NCBI GenBank assembly: GCA_035084275.1
Contig: CM068746.1
Location: 3,782,001-3,846,000, forward strand
From: Hydrolagus colliei
Lineage: Eukaryota
Direction: 5' to 3'
DNA: 64,000 bases
Every line of letters starts with the position of its first letter. Positions within the stretch are counted from its first letter, which is position 1. This document shows, piece by piece, positions 8,335 through 57,995 of the stretch. Under the pieces are notes generated by a model. That model did not search any database and was not told where the DNA came from. It was given only the letters and a program-made list of their open reading frames with translations. Both the position numbers and the translations under genes were made by a program.

Positions 8335-8690
8335 AGAGGTCACTGGGGAACACTCGGCAGGTCAGGCAGCATCTATGGAGAAAGGAAAGTGAGTCAATGT
8401 TTCGGGTCCACGACACATTGTCAGAACTGGGGCATGTTGGGAGGGTGGGGGGGAGTGGAGTGGGGGGAAATTGCAACAAAACAGGCAGACCTGAGAGAGA
8501 AAAGCTGCGTTGGAGACCCAGATGATGTGGTAATGGTCATAGATGAGGGGAGGGGGAAGGTGAGCTGTTATGGTCTGAAATTGTTGAAATCGATATTGAC
8601 AGATACGAGATGGCAGATACGAGATGCTGTTCCTCAAGTTTCCTCTGTGATTCATTGGAAGAGTCTAGGAGACCCTGGATGGGGAGCTCA
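8335..8690 (-). mobile_element. Penelope-like retroelement 3' remnant (GIY-YIG C-terminus plus pLTR with decayed hammerhead)
   Basis: Minus strand reads SNESQRKLEEQHL, then a frameshift, then NIDFNNFRP*. The 8340-8430 segment is homologous to the left arm of the 23937-24177 palindrome; its hammerhead core is mutated (CTGACAA, GAAACATT). Confidence 0.75.
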
Positions 8691-20909: not shown

Positions 20910-20963
20910 TGTTCCAGAATTTATGTATTTTTTCTTTTTTTCTTTCTTTTTGGGATTTAGCAC
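20910..20963 (-). CDS. CPNE8: Copine exon 6 of 9, 54 nt
   Basis: ttttcag|GTG CTA...GGA ACA|gtaagt, giving VLNPKKKEKKKKYINSGT, the copine polybasic loop. Confidence 0.95.
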
Positions 20964-21944
20964 CTGAAAAATAAAATAAAATACTGCATGTCCTCGTTTC
21001 CGCAAAACTTTGAACAGGATTCAAAAGCACTATTATATCAAAATGCTAACAAAGCTGGCAACCTTTCCAATTGTTGGATTGAAAAGCAGCGACTGTGTTT
21101 TCAGCCACTTTGCCCTAAACCTCTGGACCTCGCTGCCTCAATCCCTCCACATTGCCACCTCTTTGCTATTCTTTAGCTCGTACCTGATGACTTTCCTCTT
21201 CGATCGTTCTTCAGGTTGCCTTCCCCTTTCTCCCCAGCTCAACATCAAACAATGCCACTGTTAAGCACTCAAACACCCTATCAAGACCATTAAATGCTCT
21301 CTGTAAATGCAAGCTGTTGTCGTGACATTCAGGGTGGATGGGAATTAACTGTTTTAAATGAAGTATTTAAAAACATTCTTGCAATACTGTTAATACATCC
21401 ATAAATAATATATTCAGTTACCAATGTCGTTATAATGCATTCATGCAAATGAAATGAATTCATGCATACATCCCCTCTGCTAGGTTTGGCAGAACATAGT
21501 AATGATTCCAAACACGTGTGAGTGATTAGTCTAGTATCATATGGGTGCCCGTCTAGACCATTGCACCAACTGGAGGTTGGTAGTGATATTTGATGTTTTG
21601 GATTGGGTTCAACAACCAGTTCCAATTTTCAGTTCATGGTAGAATGCCATAAAATCAATTAATCCTAACTCGCCCATCGGTTAAGCCTTTCAAATATACA
21701 GCGAGAACATCTCTGGACTAATGTATTCAACAACCGAGTCAAACTGAGAGGCAAGTGCAGTTTCCGGAGGGCATTGCGAATGTTTACCATTTACCATACA
21801 CAAGTTACGCATATTCCTGACTGACCTGGTTGGTTCCTCGCTACAAAAATAACTCGCAATCATTATTCCACCATCATATGATGTAGAGTGACGCTCTGGG
21901 ACACTACCCTGTGTGAAGGACGCTATACAAATGTAAGTTGTTAG

Positions 21945-22198
21945 ATTTGGCCTTCAGCCAATCTGCCACCACTCTCTCCAACTCCATCCCATGGACTCTC
22001 TGCATCTCAAGACCCTCCTCTTCCAGACCCACCTCAAGACCCTCCTGTTCGACCGCGCCTTTGGTCATCCTCCTTTCCCAGCACTTTCCTCCACCCTCCC
22101 CGATCCCCAGCTCGGATCCAAAACATTGTCTGTCCAATGCCTTGGGACATCCTCCTGACGTGAAAGGTGTTATTGTGTAATTTTGTTGTTGTTGTTGA
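21945..22198 (+). mobile_element. L2 LINE 3' end
   Basis: gccttgggacatcctcctgacgtgaaagg followed by a (TTG)n tail. Confidence 0.8.
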
Positions 22199-22694
22199 AA
22201 CACTTGGATATATTAAATGATAGTAATAGCCACACATACCCACAACCGATGTATCTCAGTTTTGACGTTTTCATAAATAATTTTAATTACAAACCTCATG
22301 GTGCATCAATTAGTCTCAGTCCCCCTCACACATGATAAGGTTTAAACCATGATATATTAAGTTACTCTGTCATGGCTCCCAAAAATGCTGATCATTATAC
22401 AGTACCAAAAAGATGTGTCCAATGTACACCTACAACATTTGCAGTAGTATATTCTCATTTAACTGGAACCAATTCACATAGATGCAGTTTCTGCAGAATT
22501 TCACTGCAATCATCGGAAAAAGCCATATTGCCACTTGACATGAAATGGTGTTCTCCTCTATGGGGTAGAAATTCCATAAGGCACTCGCATCAATTAAAAA
22601 TCTGTGACCTAATTTGGAGAGTTAATTAGGATGATGATCATTAAATAACATCTAAAATTCCTGTCAGAGTTTCTTTGGTATTTAATAATACATA

Positions 22695-23019
22695 TAATAA
22701 TCCTTGCATTTGATGTAGCGCTTTTCACATTTTCTAGACGTCTCAAAGCGCTTCACAAAATATACTGAAAAGTGAATTGACTGTATATTTGTGGGCAAAA
22801 CGTGGCAGCCAATTGCGCACAGCAGCGTCCCCACAAACAGCCCTGGACTGAAGTGACCAATTTTTTAATTACAGTATCGTGCTTTTTTTGGAGGGATTAT
22901 TATTAAACATGTGGAGTAAGGAAACTTGCCCAAGGTTTCTCCCTGATCTGCCTGGATTCGAACACAAGTCTCACGCTTGTAAGGCGAGTGCTCTAAACAC
23001 TGATATATACAGGAGCGCC
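22695..23019 (-). mobile_element. Full-length tRNA-derived SINE
   Basis: Reverse complement of the 59322-59640 copy from tail to tRNA-like head. Confidence 0.92.
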
Positions 23020-23992
23020 ATGTGGTAGTTGGGTCCAACCCGCGCAAAGCGACCAAAATATCTACCTTTTTCTCGTGCCATTATTTTGAGCAGGACGTAA
23101 ACAGATTCTATACACATCTCCCTACAACAGGGTAAACAACACTGACAATTTTGCTGGTGTTTGGGGAACCCCATAGATTTTGTGATGATTGACACCCATT
23201 CGAGAAACATCAACAGAGAGAACAAGAAAAAAAAACGATTCCGGGCAACAGTCATTTTCAAACTGAATGGATGGGTTTGGGGAAAGGGACCGTGTGGGGG
23301 GAAAACAGTCAGGACATTTTCTCTTGACTTTATCTTGCATGAGTGGCAGTTTGGGAGATCGCAATTGGGCGTTTCAGGAATATTGTAGAAATGATGGAAG
23401 TCACAATTGATCCTTCCCATCCTTTTTTTTAAGATATTACAATTGGCCTCTCAAAGAATGAAGGGGGGTGTGGGGGGGGGGGCAGTGGAGGGGTATAAAA
23501 CAGAATGATGGTAGATGATGCAAAACAGTGCTTTATTTACTCAACAACGTCGTATTTACAGTAAGCCTGCGAGCAGAGCATCTCCAACCTACGCACCGTT
23601 ATGTAAGACTGAGCAAGCGATGGGCACCTTTATAATGCCAGTGCTGAGATACTTTTTTTTATATATCTCACTGATGATACAGAACATTTATTGTTTGATT
23701 GTGCTAATGGATGAAGTCCAATGATTCCTAACAGACTGACTTGATCACTTTTCGATGGCCTTGCTCATAGTGGCTAAAACAGCATATCGTAAATTGTGAA
23801 TCACCTCAAGAGAGGTTTGGTGTTTCACCTATGACAAGTGCCCAAAACCCAGCAACAATAATAACTGGTGACAAGCCAGTGCGGATTTTAATCTGAAGAG
23901 AGTACACTGAAACATGAACGCATATTTTAATAAAACAAAAACGGCTGAAAACGCTCAGCAGCTCAGGCAGCATCTATAGAGGAAGGAAAAGT

Positions 23993-24030
23993 GAGTCAAC
24001 GTTTCGGGTCCACGACCCTTCGTCAGAACT
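23993..24030 (-). ncRNA. Minimal type I hammerhead ribozyme motif, sense to copine pre-mRNA
   Basis: AGUU-CUGACGA-A-GGGUC(GUG)GACCC-GAAAC-GUU-GACUC. Confidence 0.65.
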
Positions 24031-24035
24031 GAAAT

Positions 24036-24074
24036 GAGTTCTGACGAAGGTTTGTACGCCTGAAACGTTGACTC
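24036..24074 (+). ncRNA. Minimal type I hammerhead ribozyme motif
   Basis: GAGUU-CUGACGA-AGGU(UUGUAC)GCCU-GAAAC-GUU-GACUC: stem I GAGUU/GACUC, stem II, intact core, palindromic AACGUU in place of stem III. Confidence 0.7.
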
Positions 24075-25565
24075 GCTTGCCTTTCTCCCTGGATGCTGCC
24101 CGACCTGCTGAGTGTTCCCAGTGATTTACGTTTTTGTTTTCGACTTCCAGCATCTGCAATATTTTGCGTTTTGTACGTATTTTAATAAAACGGACTGTCT
24201 GGCTCTGATAACATGCACGCAATTGTTTATAAACATTTCAATGAGTATGTTTCAGACTATTTTATTACGTTCCAAAATGCAAGGATTATTATCATTATTA
24301 TTACAGTATTATTATTTTTTTCCCTTGACACATACAAAGAGGATTTCTGGGTGAAATTGGGATACTGCTTGAGCTGTTGGGATTTCCAACACTGCACAGC
24401 TTCCCATTGATAGAACTGTATGCCAAACGTTCCTGCTGCTTGCCCAACTAAGACCACCTATCCATTAGGACTTTGTCTTGCAGGGTTAACAGGAGCTGAC
24501 TGGGAGGATTCCCTTCCTCCAGTGACTGATGTGCCCTTCTGAGTCCTAATTATGTACTGGCTCGACTCCAGCATCGCTCCAATGCACACCACGGGGTTAC
24601 CAAGCCTTGAGTTCACCTAATACAGTACTTTCCGTAATTAGGAAATCAGGATACGTCCCTCCAAGGAGAGATTAGCGCATTCCATTCCTACAATTTCTCT
24701 CCAGAACAGAAATCCTCTTTGAATGTGTCAAGGGAAAAATATTTGGAAAACCACAAAATAATCTGCAACAAATTCACTGAAATATTCATAAACAATTATT
24801 CTATTTGCAAACACTGCACTTGCTATCAGACTTAGTCGGTCAATTTTTATTAAAACGTGTTCACGTTTCATCTGAAAGTATAAAAATGTGAATGGTAAAT
24901 GTGTATCCCCCTGCAGTGCTAATATTCTTTCATCAATTTTAATATATCAAGATATATTTTTACTGTTGAAATCATGCAGCACATGGATCCACAACTTCAT
25001 CTCATCGCCTCGTCCTGTCCCTGAAGCAAGGAAAAATTACAGGGCCAATGTTGTCAGTAGAGGCACTGACAAAGACCTCTGTAGATCACCTGCTAAACCC
25101 TCCCTCCTGTGCAACAGCATATTCTCATGACGCTCACAACCCTGCAATTGTATTTATGTTTGTGACTTTGTTTCTCGCTTCTATTTTCGGCCAGTCAAGT
25201 ATCAGGAATTTCTCTGGCTGACGCAGAAAAAAATTGTCTACGTTTGTTTTGTAGACAATGTAGTTGCTTTGTTGTAATATCAGCAAAATAAGCAAAACCT
25301 GTCTAGAAGTGTATACTGGAATCTCTCTGGAATTCCATCCCCGAGTCCATCCGATTCAGGCCATCTCCTCTCCTTTCATGGCACCTCTTTGAACATGTGT
25401 TCAGCCAATATTCCCTATCCCTCTCAGCTCCTTACTCCAGCTCGGTTGTCCATCCCGCACTATGAGCAACTTTCAGACATGTTCCCAACCATTATATAAT
25501 TGTATATTATATTGTTAAATCAATTATAATTTGTGAGTTTGTAAATGTGCGTTAATTAGCAATTG

Positions 25566-25897
25566 TGGAGCTCCTGTAGCTCAGTGGTTAGATAACTCGC
25601 CTTATAAGCATGAGACCTGTGTTCGAATCCAGGCAGGTCAGGGTAAAACCTTGGGCAAGTTTCCTTACTCCACACACATAATGCCTAATAATAATCCCTC
25701 CAAAAATACACACAATAATAAAGGTGGTCATTTCAACCCACAACTGTTTGTGGGACACTGCTGTGCGCAATTGGCTGCTGCGTTTCATCCACAAATATAC
25801 AGTCAATTCAATTTACAGTATATTCCATGAAGCATTTATGAGACGTCTAGAAGACATAAAAAGTGCATTATCAATGCAAGGATTATTTTATTATTAT
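25566..25897 (+). mobile_element. Full-length tRNA-derived SINE
   Basis: A box TAGCTCAGTGGTTAGA, B box GTTCGAATCC, body and (ATT)n-like tail. Confidence 0.92.
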
Positions 25898-27497
25898 ACA
25901 AAGAGAAAACATTGGATATTTCTAGTACACTATAACATCCATTAGCAAGTTAATAATTCAAAATTTGCAGTCAAGCATATCATGAATTGAAATCATCTAT
26001 GTTAGATACAATACTAGATAGTGTGCGTTCTCCATATATGCCACATTTGTGGCGTTCCTAAAGTATTTGTTAACTTATCTAAGCAAGTTGCTTCTTTCTC
26101 TAGGTCGGTGACTTGGAGTTATCTCATGTCCTTGCACCGTGAAAACAATGTTGCCCTACATGAATCTCCAGTATTTACCAAACGTCACATTTGTTCTGTT
26201 TGCCGTCAAGGACTAAATTCCACATTTTCTTTGCAGAAAAAATAACATTTTCAAGGAGCAATTGGGTGGGGAGTACAGTACAATACTACTGGGCTTGCAT
26301 TTACAATGTGGCAGCATGAGAGGAGCAAACCACTCCTGGACAGGGATCCACCAGATGACATTCCTATACCAACTTCAGAACAAGTTGTAGCAAAGTTGCT
26401 ATGTTCCTGTTCACATCCGCCGTTAAAAAACAGAGCTAAAGCATAGTTTGACCTCCCTCTCGCTCTCGCCCGTTTCTCAATAAGGGAGCGCCCAAAGATG
26501 TCGGAGAAACGTTAGCGCCACCATCAGTGGCAGACGCCGGAATATCAGACACCTATTGTAAAAACTAATGTAGAAGGATCAACAATTCATTCAACGATAT
26601 TTAAAAACTCAATAGCTAAGGTGGGAGTTGAAGCCCAAATCACTCAGTTCCCGCAACTTCAAATTGCTCTGATCTACTCCCAATCGTTGTAAATAGTTTT
26701 GCTCATAATAGCATTTTTGACCTAATTTTTTTTGTTCGTTGACAAAATCCATTCAAGACTAAACCGTGATTATTCCAAGGTGGCATTCTCATCGTTAATA
26801 TCCATCGAAAACCCCAGGATGAGTTTTACTTTCAAAGATGAGCTCATTTCTCAGCTCAAGATAAAATAAAAAATGCAGCTGGTTAGAAATTGGATAGACA
26901 GTACTTAATCCACCTGAAGGTGATAATACGTTTAAAACCATTCATCTGAAAAAAGCACAACAAAAGCAATTTTTATTCATTAAACTGGTTATTGATAGTG
27001 CTATTTTGTAATCATGCATATTATTAAACGATATCAAAACTATTTATCAGTCAAAGTAAAAATTTATATTTTTTTCTTGTTGTTATCTGCGTTTATTGGC
27101 TAAACCAGTGGAGTGAGTGTTCACTCACTGACTGAAAAATATACTTGGAATGAGTTGTGGTTCATTTATCATGGGAACAGCATGCTAACTGCGTAAGAGA
27201 CTTGAGTGTACACTGAGCTATGTAGCTGTGAAGTCAACTCGAGGGAACCCGGTTCCAAAAATAGAAAGAGGTGGAGAAACATTTGCGCATCACAAACTTA
27301 ATTTCTTATTTACGGAATTCACCATAAACTGATCCCCGTGGTTGCAAACGAGCTTATGTTATGATGTGAAATTGGTAAATGTCAATTTCAATTGTTGAGT
27401 ATGTCATATTTCACAGGGTATGCGTCTCTGAAGAGTAAAATTTCTAATATGGGTGTGAGTGTCTTACGATCCTCCAGTGCCTCTTCTTTCATCGATA

Positions 27498-27712
27498 CAG
27501 TAAAAGCCCGTTTATCCGTGTCTCGATCAACTGTAACTTCCGCATAACCGGCACCTTAAAAAAGGTCCCCATTCGATTAACCGGAATTTATCCGGCACAT
27601 TGTATTATCTTTAAAAAAGAAAAATTTGGGGTGTTTTCGGCCGAATGTCCGACATGTGCTTTAACCGGCATTGGGCAGGTCGCGAGGGTGCCGGATAAAG
27701 GGGCTTTTATTA
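27498..27712. mobile_element. Tc1/mariner-pogo (Tigger-like) MITE, 215 bp
   Basis: TA|CAGTAAAAGCCCGTTTATCCG...CGGATAAAGGGGCTTTTATTA|TA: 21-bp TIR with 3 mismatches and TA TSD. Confidence 0.8.
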
Positions 27713-28392
27713 TACATGCTTTCTAAGCTAATTGGCTAGTATTAGATTTTTTGTTGAAAATAAACTACTGTTATGTATTTGAGATAGACTAATGCTAACA
27801 TCAAAAGGGAAAGTACCTATAGTGTAAGTGGAATACACAAAAAGACAGCAGGGTTTACAGTAACAATCCATTAGAGACTTAAACTGTACTCTCATTGAAT
27901 GTTTGCTCTTTGATGGATCGTGTCACTCGTGTGACTGTTCATACCTGCACCCTGCTGATCTATGGGTTGAGTAATGGTGTCATAAATCCTGATTTCTAAT
28001 CATACCCCTGATCCACCAAGCGCTGCCCTTGAGGTCAGCTATCTCATTCAAAACCCAAGTGCACGTGACATACTAAAAGAGAAGACATTGCACACACCAC
28101 AATGATCTTTTTGAGGGCATCAAAGAACAGACAAGAGAATGATAGGAGTGGAACTTGACATGGTCGATGTACACCACAGATTGATTGACTGTCGGCATTT
28201 CCAGAGTCGACAAGACCCAATATGAAATAGAATTTAGTAAATGTCTTTTTATATACATTTGTGGCAATGGATGAGGCTGTTAAGACTGCTTGCTGACAGT
28301 GCACATGGACCCAGCCAGTACCGTGTCCAATCCACAGAAATTACCTCCCGATGATTGGAAAATAAGATGTTTTCCAACACTGCGCGTACCTT

Positions 28393-28913
28393 ACTATTAA
28401 TAATCCTTGCATTTGATATAGCGCTTTTCACGTCTTCTAGACATCTCAAAGCCTTTCACAGAGTATACCGTAAAACAGCGGCTTCCAAACTTTGAATAGC
28501 AGCGTCCTCCCTAACTCAGTAACGTCTATATTGCGCCCCCCCCCTCCTCCTTTACACTCGGCTCTGCGCACTCGGGTCCGCCTTGGCTCCTCACGCACTC
28601 GGGAACTCGAGACTCTAAAGCTCCGCGCTCCCCCAGCCAGCGGTACGGGCCCCCCCAAGGGAGGCGAGCTCCACAGTTTGGAAACCTCTGCTGTAAAGTG
28701 AATTGACTGTATATTTGTGGGCTAAACGCAGTAGTCAATTGCACAGAGCAGTGCCCCACAAACAGTCATGGATTGAAAATGACCAATTTATTATTGCTTT
28801 TTTGATGGGATTATTATTACTATTAAGTGTAAGGAAACCGGCCATCGCCTGGAATTGAACCCAGGTCTCTCGCTTGCAAGGTGAGTTCTCTAAACACTGG
28901 TCTACAGGACGCC
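28393..28913 (-). mobile_element. SINE interrupted by a hAT MITE
   Basis: Tail at 28393-28475; the body resumes at 28691 (ctgtaaagtgaattgac) and runs to the head at about 28913. Confidence 0.88.
28476..28690. mobile_element. hAT (Charlie-like) MITE, 215 bp
   Basis: TIRs CAGCGGCTTCCAAACT and CAGAGGTTTCCAAACT; 8-bp TSD ccgtaaaa / ctgtaaag derived from the host SINE. Confidence 0.85.
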
Positions 28914-29511
28914 ACAAATTATCTCAATCACGACTCTGAATTCCATATACTGTACCTGTACAGGCCAAGGCTTGACATTTGGAGATCTTTAACATTTCTT
29001 TCTTGTGTATGGTGTCGCCCCTGCCTGATCTTTTAGATTCTTAAATGTTTCAATCTGTTCCCAGGCAGAGAGTGATAGCCGCTGTGATTGGGGGGAGAGG
29101 GCTATTGCTGTACTGTACTGCCATTCACACCACAGCCATTATTTAGAAAAGATTAAGACTCGACACACGTGAACTGCGCCACTGGTATAGTGCGGTACCT
29201 GACAACTTCAAACATTCAACATGATAAAAACAAATTATTTAATTTTTCTCAACAGGTTAGATCTATCGACAATTAGTAAACTGGAGTTATGACTATTGTT
29301 AGCAATAATAAAAATCAATGCATTTCACATAACACCATTCACATCAGGAGCATGTCTGAAAGTGCTTAATAAATACCTTGTACACCATAAAATAATCCCT
29401 AAAAAAAATAATAATAATAAATTGGTCATTTCGATCCACAACTGTTTGTGGGACACTGCTGTGTGCAATTGGCAGCCGCGTTTCTCCCACAAATATACAG
29501 ACAGTTCACTT

Positions 29512-29905
29512 TACAACAACAACAACAACTTTGATGTATATAGCGCCCTCCACGCTGGACGGCGTCTCAGAGGGCTTCACAGTAACGGATCCCGGGACCG
29601 AGCCAGGGGCAGGGGGTAGAAAGGTGACCAAAGGCGCGGTCGAAGAGAACGGTCTTTAGCTGTGAACCTGAAGCTGGGAAGAGAGGGGGCGAGGCGAAGG
29701 GAGTGAGGGAGGGAGTTCCAGAGCCTCGGGGCGCGGTGGCTGAAGGCACGGCCACCGAGGGTGGAGCGGAGGATTCGGGGGGACATGGAGGAGGCCAGAC
29801 CCGGTGGAGCGAAGGCAGCGGGTGCTGGTTTGGGGAGAGAGGAGATCAGAGAGATAGGGGGGTGCAGAGGAGTGGAGGGATTTGAAAACAAGGATGAGGA
29901 TCTTG
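29512..29905 (-). mobile_element. Young L2 LINE 3' end nested in a plus-strand SINE (about 29385-29972)
   Basis: ORF 29577..29891 contains STLGGRAFSHRAPRLWNSLPHSLRLAPSLPSF (L2 ORF2 C-terminus); CpG-rich; near-copy at 60815-61045. Confidence 0.88.
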
Positions 29906-31044
29906 TTAATCTACGAAGCGCTTTGAGACAACTAGGAGCACCATATCAAATGCCAGGATTAATATTATTATTACAACAACATTTCCCTAGCCGTTTTTCA
30001 CAAGGTAGCAAGTCAACAACTGAAATATTATCCGCCACTTCACAAATCTACATTTCTCTCTAATCCTCATTTTAGCGCTCACGTTTAAAAAAACATCAAT
30101 AATGGAGGTTACTTTTACTCTGGTTGTCAAGAGAATTCAGATCTATTTGGTACACGTTTAGAATTTGTACTGGTATTTTTTAGCAATCAGAATAAATTGG
30201 ACACCAATTTTCAAATGCTTTAGCCGATCGCTTTTTGTGCCGTAGGAGCTGAATCTCAAGTAATCACACTGCAACAATGATTCATTCAGCCAATTCGATG
30301 CAAAGATATTTTGTGCTTTTTTGTTCTGCCTAGGGATCACTACTTATTTTGTCCTGCATTGGAAGAGTTCAATGGCAGGTTGAGACCAAAGATTTTAAGG
30401 CGACTGCAAGCAGCCAGGCAAGCCCGCAGTGCTGTTAATGTTAAGTATATTTCGCAAATAATTTCCAGAAAATAAATGACTGCTCAAAGAAATTCTACCA
30501 CATCCCTAACAAACAAACAGCAACAACAAAATTACATTTATAGAGCGCCTTTCACATCGGGAGGACGCAAAACACAATCTAAGATTTTATTTCTTTAAAT
30601 GCCAGTTCGCCTTGGCTTGCAATTGCCAAATGTAATGTAGAACATCTTTTCTTTTGAAGATTCATAAATGTGGATGACAAATGTAATCGTTTCACATTTT
30701 TTGCAACTTAGCCATGCTGGAATCAAATTTTGATTTGATGATCAGGATCAAAAAGAAAATGCCCCATTTTTGCAATGAAATGTTAGAATCAATATGTGGA
30801 ACTGTTGATAATGGAAACGTACTCCTAAGAACCATTGGTTTTCCAGTAAATGTAAGCTTTAGTAGAGTTGAAAGGGCTGAACTGATTTCATAACCCATTT
30901 TCCATTACATATCGTAATTATCATAATCAGAGAAAGATGTGGCATAATTATCAAGGGTTAAACACATCACTGAAAATCCACAAAACTTAAACATTTGCAT
31001 TGTGGAGTCCTGTAGCTCAGTGATTAGAGCACTTGCCTTACAAG

Positions 31045-31368
31045 AATAATAATAATAATCCTTGCATTTGATATAGCGCTTTTCACATCTTAGCGACGTC
31101 TCAAAGCACTTCACAGAATATACTGTAAAGTGAATTGACTGTATATTTGTGGGTGAAACGTGGCAGTCCAATTGCGCACAGCAGTGTCCAACAAACATTC
31201 GTGGATTGAAGTGACCAATCTTAATTATTGTGGTTTTTTGGGGGAGGGATTATTATTAGGCATGTGTGTGGAGTAAGGAAACTTGCCCAAGGTTTTGTCC
31301 TGACCTGCCTGGATTTGAACACAGGTCTCACGCTTGTCAGGCGAGTGCTCTAACCACTGAGCTACAGA
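31045..31368 (-). mobile_element. Full-length SINE, preceded by an isolated plus-strand SINE head (31003-31043)
   Basis: ggagtcctgtagctcagtgattagagcacttgccttacaag directly abuts the antisense tail aataataataatccttgcatttg. Confidence 0.9.
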
Positions 31369-31900
31369 CCTTTGACACCATGGACCATTGAATGCTCCTC
31401 CACCACCCTTCCTCTCACCTCAACCTTCAAGGTTCTGTCCTTGTCTGGTTCAGGTCCCATCTCTCACATCGTGTCCATTTTGTTTCTGCCAACGGTTTCT
31501 CTTCCAGCCCCCGCACTGTCTACTGCGATGCCTCTCAGGGCTCTGTCCTTGGTCACCTCCTCTTCACCCCTCTACAATGCTCCCGTTTTGTGGCATCATC
31601 AGCAGACATGGGCTAAATTTCCACATGTACGCGGACGACACCCAAATCTATCTCTCTGACTCCACTCTCAATTCCAGGACAATTGACATGCTGACAGACT
31701 GTTTGTCAGACATCAAGTCCTGGATGAGAGACAACTTTCTATGGCTGAACAGCAGCGCGACCGAGGCCCTCATGATTGGCTTGCGTCAGTGCCTCCACAC
31801 CTCAGGCACTAGCAGCATCAGCATTCATTGATGGGACACTCCACCTCACCAAGCCAGCAGTCAGAACTCTGGCTGTCTTGGTCTCATTTCAAGATTTTAG
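31369..31900 (+). mobile_element. L2 LINE reverse-transcriptase fragment (frameshifted)
   Basis: [11 protein letters not shown] and [22 protein letters not shown]...LTDCLSDIKSWMRDNFLWLN, including the YADD catalytic motif. Confidence 0.9.
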
Positions 31901-32448
31901 TGGACAACACAATCTCTAACACTTGATAGAATCGTAGAATCCTACGGCACAAAAGGAGGCCATTCGGCACATCGACTCTGCGCCGGCTCTTTAGAAAGAG
32001 CAATTTAATCCCATTGTAAGGCAGATTCAATTTTGTGGACCTCCAAACTGCTGCCTTACAAAAGGTTTCTCCTGTAATGCAAACACAGGTATATCAAAGG
32101 AAAGTAAACAGGCACAGATAAAGGTTGTGTTGGTAGAAATTGTTGCAAGCGTGAAAGAGACTAAAAGGATTAAAGTGAAGTCTTAGCTAGGCAGAATTAG
32201 TGCACCACAAAGGTCATCTGGAGCAGAAATAACTGATACGGTGCATGAGTTCTCGCATTAGAGGACTTGTAGGGATTGCTGGATTTAGGAAACATATTGG
32301 TAAACTGCAGCATCACACTGCTGCCCTCAATACTGATGCATCTGGCAGCCACTGAAAGGATCGTACTGTTTTCAATTGGGACAAAGAAAACCCTTTTCAC
32401 AATCCCTTCTAATGTTGTAGTAGGTTTCACCGAAAAGCAAACTCTTAC

Positions 32449-32524
32449 CTCATACACATTGAACTGCGACTGTCCTCTGGACAATTCTCTGTAACTGGTA
32501 GTGAACTCTCCGATAAAATCGTGG
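32449..32524 (-). CDS. CPNE8: Copine exon 5 of 9, 76 nt
   Basis: tttggcag|C CAC GAT...TAT GAG|gtaag, giving [25 protein letters not shown]; also visible inside ORF 32197..32577. Confidence 0.95.
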
Positions 32525-56690: not shown

Positions 56691-57995
56691 TAGGGAATGG
56701 CGATATGGGAATTTTCCGGATATGGATATATCGGTTGGCTCATACTGAGATATACCGAAATATCGATATTTTCTGTTTTTTCGTACTGCGCATGCGCGCG
56801 CGCATCAGAGTGCGCGCGCATTCCGGGTGCGTGCGCATTCCGGGTGCACGCGCATTCGGGGCCTATTTTCTCAGGAGGTAAATATCTTTCTCTCTCTGTG
56901 TCTCTCACTCTCTCCATCTCTGTGTTTTTCTGTCTGTGTCTCTCTATGTCTCTCTCCCTCTCTCCTCTCTCACATCCCCCCCCCATCTCTATCTATCTGT
57001 ATATTATCACATCCACCCTGTCTCTCCGCCCCCGCCCCCCCCGCCGTCCCTCTCTCGCACCCCCCACCCCCGTCGTCTCTCTCCCCCACCACTCCCCCAG
57101 CCATCTCTTTCTCCCTCCACCCCCCCCCCCCCCCCGCCGTCTCTCTCTCCCTCCCCACCCAGCCGTCTCTCTCCCCCTCCCCCCAGCCGTCTCTCTCCCC
57201 CTCTCCTACCCCCACCCAGCCGTCTCTCTCCCCCTCTCAGCCGTCTCTCTCCCCCTCTACCCCCCCCCAGCCGTCTCTCTCCCCCCCCCCCCGCCGTCTA
57301 TCTCCCCCTCTCCCCAGCCGTCTCTCTCCCCCTCTCCTCCTCCCCCCAGCCGTCTCTCTCTCCCTCTCCTCCCCCCCCCAGCCGTCTCTCCCCCTCTCCT
57401 CCCCCCCAGCCGTCTCTCTCCCCCTCTCTCCCCCACCAGCCGTCTATCTCCCCCTCCCCCCAGCCGTCTCTCTCCCCCTCACCCCCCCCCTAGCCGTCTC
57501 TCTCCCCCTACCCCCCCAGCCGTCTCTCCCCCTCTCCTCCCACCCCCAGCCATCTCTCTCCCCCTCCCCCCCCCCCCCCCCAGCCGTCTCTCTCCCACCC
57601 CCAGCCGTCTATCTCCCCCTCCCCCCAGCCGTCTCTCTCCCCCTCACCCCCCCCCCCCCCCCCAGCCGTCTTCTCCCCCTCACCCCCCCTCCCCAGCAGT
57701 CTCTCTCCCCCTTCACCCCCCCCACCCACAGCCGTCTCTCTCCCCCCACCCCTTGCATACCTGTATATTGTATTCGAGGACTATGAATACAATATGGCGA
57801 CTTTGCACCTCGGTCTGTGCATTGTGTAGAGAGATGAGCATTCTGGGTCTTGTAGTTCAGTGTGCTCGCATCCCGATTTTTTACCTCGATATATCGATTT
57901 TCGATATACCGATATTTTTTTAATGTCTATATCGGCATATCGATATGAAAATCATATCGGGTTTTAGCGATATACCGATATATCGCCATTCCCTA
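56691..57995. mobile_element. Non-autonomous hAT DNA transposon with internal minisatellite, copy 2 (1305 bp), inverted relative to copy 1
   Basis: Perfect 16-bp TIR TAGGGAATGGCGATAT; perfect 8-bp TSD GCCTCTCG at 56683-56690 and 57996-58003; unique segments match the reverse complement of 16454-17239. Confidence 0.94.
57015..57752. repeat. C-rich minisatellite, unit about CAGCCGTCTCTCTCCCCC(TC)Cn, inside hAT copy 2
   Basis: Over 25 variable-length units; the same unit forms a shorter array at about 16698-16975. Confidence 0.93.

Follow-up and report, generated by a model that had tools for sequence, protein, structure and literature searches.

The window analysed here, a stretch of 64,000 nt of Hydrolagus colliei (GenBank assembly GCA_035084275.1, contig CM068746.1, positions 3,782,001 to 3,846,000), includes part of a copine gene on its minus strand, recognised by a Pfam Copine match at 341-715 (E=2.5e-19). 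One exon of this gene ends at 32449 and the next begins at 20963 (minus strand), with GT and AG at the intron borders, so that a 241-bp insert lying between them, about 3.0 kb from the acceptor, is intronic, as had been predicted from the sequence. The insert consists of two inverted arms, and because the gene lies on the minus strand, the ribozyme motif of the minus-strand arm is the one found in the copine pre-mRNA. The features are as follows, with family positions counted from the A that opens hammerhead stem I (position 0; 24037 on the plus strand and 24030 on the minus strand).

20964..32448, minus strand: host intron of the copine gene, 11.5 kb, between two C2-region exons
23923..23936, plus strand: left copy of the target site duplication (TSD), 14 nt, exact; read from 23921, 16 nt with one mismatch
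23937-24177: insert, 241 bp, TSD-flanked
23937..24031, minus strand: pLTR arm of subfamily B type, short and without a tail, covering family positions -1 to about +102 and bearing a 6-nt deletion; sense orientation within the copine pre-mRNA
23994..24030, minus strand: minimal type I hammerhead, cleavage predicted after 23998
24032..24036: junction between the arm starts (centre), 5 nt, its final TG directly before the plus arm
24037..24073, plus strand: minimal type I hammerhead, core intact (24041-24047, 24062-24069), stem II damaged (24048-24061); antisense relative to the copine pre-mRNA
24037..24175, plus strand: long pLTR arm with tail, family positions 0 to about +137
24141..24175, plus strand: one-sided tail, about 35 nt, the stretch between two putative reverse-transcription start sites
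24178..24191, plus strand: right copy of the TSD, 14 nt, exact, same as the left
8340..8429, minus strand: further family copy, lying in a different intron of this copine gene, sense in the pre-mRNA

The original prediction of a single 241-bp insertion with a 14-bp target duplication was confirmed by the exact repeat at 23923-23936 and 24178-24191, as were the two inverted arms, each with a minimal hammerhead core and a closable stem I. The arms are unequal in length, the Penelope-like (PLE) tail being on the plus arm, and they are about 75-77% alike (18 differences over 89 aligned sites); around 4 nt at the outer end of the untailed arm are common to the arm and the TSD. The tail concept itself comes from PMC3846280 and PMC11167929. 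A pattern for the palindrome centre matched 69 exact loci genome-wide and none with a reversed control, and the palindrome anatomy is therefore not a product of chance. The insert was also present in a second data set, a set of DNA contigs; no empty-site allele appeared among the 15 listed of 88 joints there, although contigs cannot show absence. Adjoining the insert is a 36-nt inverted repeat pair (24314-24349 and 24707-24742, 94%, 357 nt apart), with outer arms at 24221-24276 and 24742-24797 and an enclosed repeat that has many genomic copies; this is possibly a MITE or DNA-transposon remnant. Elsewhere in the window, 56694-57923 is of low complexity and GC-skewed, with long stop-free frames.

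Motif inspection bore out the prediction of minimal type I hammerheads without stem III: each has a closable 4-bp stem I and a stem III palindrome. An Rfam scan of the insert returned no hammerhead family at E<=10, evidently because minimal motifs without stem III escape its models. In the minus-strand motif (core extent 24026-23998), stem I pairs 24030-24027 with 23997-23994, core bases occupy 24026-24020, and a 5-bp stem II spans 24018-24006 and is the commonest stem II of subfamily B. This copy has everything expected of a minimal hammerhead, namely the core, stem I, a stem II with the G10.1-C11.1 pair, and a palindromic 15.2-16.2. The plus-strand copy (core extent 24041-24069) keeps the core but is missing the G10.1-C11.1 pair, which PMC4209133 describes as conserved in minimal hammerheads. 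The two differing stem II sequences had both been predicted to pair. This held for the minus strand; the plus stem II has two wobbles and two mismatches in the family register, and it can pair only when slipped by one base, so that the A that is usually bulged is drawn in. Its exact pattern occurs at just 2 genomic places (181 matches at up to 2 mismatches), which rules it out as a subfamily mark. What it shows is damage rather than compensation, and the idea that differing yet pairing stems are a sign of selection found no support.

The arm belongs to an abundant family. A random sample of 100 stretches of 10 kb, picked by position (1.0 Mb), contained 34 arms at 27 loci, six of the 27 being head-to-head, which extrapolates, per Gb, to about 27,000 loci, several thousand of them palindromic. 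The first-look searches gave 3,504 genomic candidates with the insert as query and 1,362 with the outer arm alone (40 scored in each case), and just 73 with the 5' part of the open reading frame. Long copies, every one of which was broken among those examined, carry reverse transcriptase (RT) motifs, a cysteine-rich linker and a GIY-YIG endonuclease (EN) upstream of the arm, on the hammerhead strand. When four frames of long copies were scanned against Pfam, the best matches were to PF00078 (RVT_1, E=1e-4) and PF01541 (GIY-YIG, E=5e-4), both under the cut-off, and the first upstream frames (L137, L138) matched 0 families. Matches to a 3' pLTR were present in 19 of 20 long loci, and in five of 30 (L279, L286, L290, L295 and L303) a direct 5' pLTR runs into the element body, which identifies the arm as a pLTR. 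The family thus displays the hallmarks of an EN+ PLE: RT followed by a C-terminal GIY-YIG domain, 3' and tandem 5' pLTRs, and an inverted truncated copy with a tail and TSD. The predicted Penelope-like origin is supported by these long copies, even though the domain matches fall under the Pfam cut-off. The linker that separates RT from EN, visible in L201-L204, suggests assignment to the Neptune clade, as that linker is described in PMC8557442.

Two subfamilies, A and B, differ from their majority letters by medians of 4.3% and 8.7% (70 and 91 arms, respectively); the window copy is of the B type, with a divergence above the median. In the copy at 8340-8429 the core is broken (G8 and G16.2 lost) and stem II is disrupted, and the sequence carries on upstream of the hammerhead. 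Several features of the family were seen in passing. At least 7 of 137 tailed arms (L053, L059, L133, L144, L147, L183 and L037) have the same other repeat on their 3' side, and in L059 the TSD lies within it; this suggests a preferred insertion target inside an abundant repeat. Some pairs of loci have the same flanks (L013/L020, L025/L026, L005/L130, L137/L138 and L295/L300) and are segmental duplications or assembly haplotype copies, by which the counts are slightly inflated. At full-length 5' ends (L290 859, L295, L286) an ATG stands about 30 nt past the tail. The arm also has two acceptor-like pyrimidine-AG sites, one of them at the short-arm end near +105.

The layout of the insert has already been published (PMC3846280, PMC8557442 and PMC4209133). 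Adineta (PMC3846280) and PLEs generally (PMC8557442, PMC8969392) are on record as having head-to-head junctions and an inverted pLTR with a one-sided tail and a TSD. The Pen2a_Av units of Adineta, as presented in PMC3846280 and in the scheme of PMC8557442, are alike in their head-to-head inverted pLTR, their 30-40 nt tail on one arm, the TSD around the whole unit, and long copies with RT and then GIY-YIG. They differ in that here both arms are cut to 100-140 nt and the coding sequence is gone, TSDs are mostly 11-16 nt rather than 8-10, and a sharp stop hotspot lies at stem I. The minimal hammerheads of PMC4209133 likewise have a palindrome instead of stem III, a bulged base before stem II and a 4-bp stem I. 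Pairs of them lie on opposite strands 100-700 bp apart in that source, whereas the cores here are 14 nt apart and the plus copy has lost G10.1-C11.1.

The palindromes were next considered as units. The proposed genome-wide search for copies with TSDs succeeded: a TSD of at least 10 nt flanked 32 of 53 palindromes, as against 1 of 53 shuffled flank pairings. The centres, however, are specific to each copy, with fillers of 0-20 nt, many of them seemingly copied from the arms (50 listed of 69 centres), and the window centre was seen once among those 50. The ends of the short arms likewise vary between palindromes, from +76 to +128. Since centres and arm ends vary from copy to copy, each palindrome was built at insertion, and together with the TSDs this makes each unit one insertion assembled on the spot. 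There is no common internal junction and there are no common termini of the kind that a MITE-like element would have, and the suggestion that the mobile unit was itself a coding-free mini-element had to be given up. A non-autonomous master, like a MITE or retrozyme, in which a ready-made palindrome is transcribed and copied whole, would explain why many copies have a common overall geometry and TSDs, and why the long arm of the window copy and one long arm on another contig share five non-CpG variants. That look-alike nevertheless has another centre, other flanks and an unrelated short arm, and tandem arrays of the unit were absent, unlike in retrozymes. Given also the varied centres and short-arm ends, we regard such a master as very unlikely, and as largely refuted already. 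Non-LTR retrozymes (bioRxiv 10.64898/2026.07.22.740005) are alike in being short, non-coding, PLE-related units with type I hammerheads. They form head-to-tail tandems with same-strand ribozymes able to dimerise (see also the review PMC6765202), whereas the insert is head-to-head, with one ribozyme per strand, and neither stands in tandem nor is amplified as a unit. At two centres (G000:C1:87935451-87935486, L128/L129; and C6:14725602-14725636) the first 17 or so bases are repeated back and forth, which suggests repeated template slips at the junction.

How two arms come to face each other is indicated by their tails and by the long copies. Among the 53 palindromes, 51 combine one tailed with one untailed arm, one is doubly tailed and one doubly untailed; of these 53, 28 had been selected for their resemblance to the window copy, a choice that biases against untailed pairs, though not against doubly tailed ones. 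Nine long loci were aligned to a natural long copy, and six of them have an inverted arm opposite the truncation point (within 41 nt in five and at 345 nt in one). All six facing arms have the complementary tail state and represent the pLTR end without mirroring the truncation point, and they were therefore primed separately. A self-priming route, proposed in PMC3846280, would have a single cDNA snap back and copy itself, so that the second arm mirrors the first. Such a fold-back is favoured by the arm starts of short palindromes, which lie only a few bases apart, by the agreement of subfamily calls in all 39 callable pairs, and by centre fillers that often seem arm-derived. The agreement between subfamily calls is expected anyway, because A and B differ in age (4.3% vs 8.7%), and several short pairs have very unequal starts. 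A fold-back of one cDNA cannot give the facing arms of the six long copies, whereas two separately primed cDNAs can, and the fold-back route is accordingly unlikely.

The insert is very probably one of the decaying head-to-head end fragments of an abundant PLE, likely formed from two separately primed cDNAs, with hammerheads predicted to be inactive in the pre-mRNA. In the mechanism that we propose, the two target strands would be nicked by a GIY-YIG/RT complex at points about 14 nt from each other; priming would occur at a start site near +137 from one nick and at a site near +103 from the other. Both cDNAs would run to the same stop point, in the first bases of hammerhead stem I, and their far ends would then be joined by end-joining with a few filler bases. 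Double priming of this kind matches the in vitro behaviour of a PLE protein from Anolis, which cleaves each of the two target strands and extends it, starting from two internal sites that bound the tail, works on uncleaved RNA, and is a predicted dimer (PMC11167929). In this element, Poseidon PAc (Frangieh et al. 2024, PMC11167929), the two internal sites for RT initiation lie about 100-140 nt beyond the hammerhead and define the tail, as here. Cutting and extension of both target strands, seen in vitro with PAc, is proposed for the present family, and in both the cDNA passes through the uncut hammerhead, the cDNAs here running through the predicted cleavage site. PAc differs in that its ORF starts inside the hammerhead; in the present family an ATG follows the tail, and the linker suggests Neptune (PMC8557442).

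The arms of the window copy offer a hint, no stronger than that, of an origin from two templates. Its long arm (24037-24175, plus strand) and that of L008 (G000:C41:1984052-1984190) share the five non-CpG variants mentioned above and a sixth altered site, several of the variants creating a CpG; the short arms paired with them, by contrast, are unrelated and belong to plain subfamily B. Sharing of five such variants occurred in 1 of about 3,700 between-locus pairs, a duplicated locus aside; the L008 arm was, however, picked as a top look-alike from thousands. The common variants could reflect a rare source together with a second template, gene conversion, or an artefact of search selection.

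A point at which many arms stop coincides with the start of the hammerhead. An 18-base pattern found 2,487 matching arms, the first 100 of which were read by eye: similarity ended within 7 nt upstream in 41, went on in 55 and was unclear in 4. Of the 34 arms in the random sample, 13 begin between -10 and +5, 6 further upstream and 15 downstream, and in the DNA contig set loose ends pile up at 24028-24031. The boundary in 77 stopped arms, a non-random set that excludes 35 loci picked by likeness to the window copy, was at +1 in 35, 0 in 21, -1 in 15, -2 in 5 and -3 in 1. The stop site fits the initiator consensus. Enzymes of the MMLV type add CAA or CA at capped ends (PMC6885630), which would be read as TTG or TG upstream of the junction. 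Of the 77 junctions, 13 carry TG, where 7.7 would be expected (p=0.04), and 25 carry G (p=0.20); TG was concentrated at boundary 0 (9/21, p=6e-5, post hoc), with 3/35 at +1, and in a stricter pattern for the cap G, G was present in 2 of 10. The cap signature is thus weak overall and strong only post hoc at one boundary. An internal promoter is reported for Penelope of D. virilis (PMC2377424). We put it at about an even chance that the stop point represents the capped 5' end of the element RNA.

The hotspot might instead be a structural or processing end, due to RT drop-off after the hammerhead, a splice acceptor, or snap-back at stem I. The site reads as a pyrimidine tract followed by CAG, an intron in D. 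virilis has its end at helix I (PMC4209133), and the TG filler is what one obtains by complementing the two bases that follow stem I in subfamily B. The stopped arms, however, lack a common upstream exon sequence and retain the base at +1 or earlier ones, and the base that snap-back needs is missing in 2 of 9 TG junctions. A full-length insertion, present twice with the same flank, also begins at +1, the others starting elsewhere. Such a structural or processing end is somewhat less likely than not. Returning to the capped end, a fuller account may tentatively be offered, at somewhat less than an even chance: the stubs would be strong-stop products of a capped RNA that begins at the first base of stem I, copied by a dimeric RT-endonuclease from two fixed start sites, sometimes on two RNAs, leaving TG read from the cap at some junctions. 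A literature search, outside which lay most subscription papers, Repbase/Dfam and supplements, found no publication on a stop hotspot at the hammerhead or on palindromic PLE stubs in sharks.

The remaining question concerns the ribozymes in their present host gene. When the insert was folded with its flanks, a long hairpin was obtained, as anticipated for the copine pre-mRNA, and the penalty for imposing the hammerhead was 39 kcal/mol for the strand of the pre-mRNA and 45 for the opposite one. In such a head-to-head arrangement, transcription of either strand reaches the antisense arm ahead of the ribozyme. The hammerheads would have been inherited from the source element and are predicted to be held in a hairpin of about 100 bp during transcription of the intron. 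The cores of the family decay neutrally, like their flanks. In 62 arms with flanks on both sides, picked without regard to the core, non-CpG changes affected 26 of 558 core sites and 152 of 3,038 sites of the 3' flank (p=0.83). CpG guanines in the core were changed in 26 of 124 cases, much like other CpG sites (58 of 248). All 11 core letters were kept in 30 of the 62 arms, and cores were intact in 8 of 18 random arms. A greater conservation of cores than flanks was thus not seen across the family, and the equal decay that the original prediction had named among its refuting outcomes was what the copies showed.

It had been proposed that the copine pre-mRNA could go back and forth between a cleavable fold and a hairpin, which would make the insert an RNA switch used by the host, with the cores of the window copy under selection. 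In its favour, the ribozyme on the minus strand has the sense orientation in the pre-mRNA and is predicted to fold stems I and II when isolated, the insert recurs in the second data set, and the copy has kept its two cores whole despite being fairly diverged. Indeed, its 18 differences over 89 sites are the most among 13 subfamily-B palindromes compared, and the chance of two intact cores is 0.05-0.06 at this divergence, compared with 0.20-0.23 for an average unit. The two intact cores are the one result that favours selection, yet with thousands of palindromes in the genome such an outcome is common. Alternation is also opposed by the 39 kcal/mol advantage of the hairpin, whose antisense arm is made first, and by the family's lack of excess core conservation. 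Minimal hammerheads remained uncut as monomers and were weakly active as dimers, according to PMC4209133, and the only other sense copy in the in-window part of the gene, that at 8340-8429, is not usable as a dimer partner because its core is broken. We therefore consider a host-used switch to be extremely improbable.

The insert is ordinary, one of thousands of decaying PLE leftovers, and as one of thousands of intronic stubs that form hairpins it is probably without consequence for the copine gene. At most, it could form an imperfect dsRNA of about 100 bp, possibly a candidate for editing like many inverted repeats. What value remains comes from the statistics of the family, which bear on the way Penelope elements construct their inverted ends. 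The inverted and tailed structures of PLEs are described as still undefined in PMC8557442, and the present family is a natural record of Penelope integration, with its one-tail rule, facing arms and stop hotspot. The in vitro system of PMC11167929 would allow a direct test both of double priming and of a start site located at the hammerhead, and, if true, the strong-stop reading would settle the origin of inverted pLTRs in favour of double priming over self-priming.
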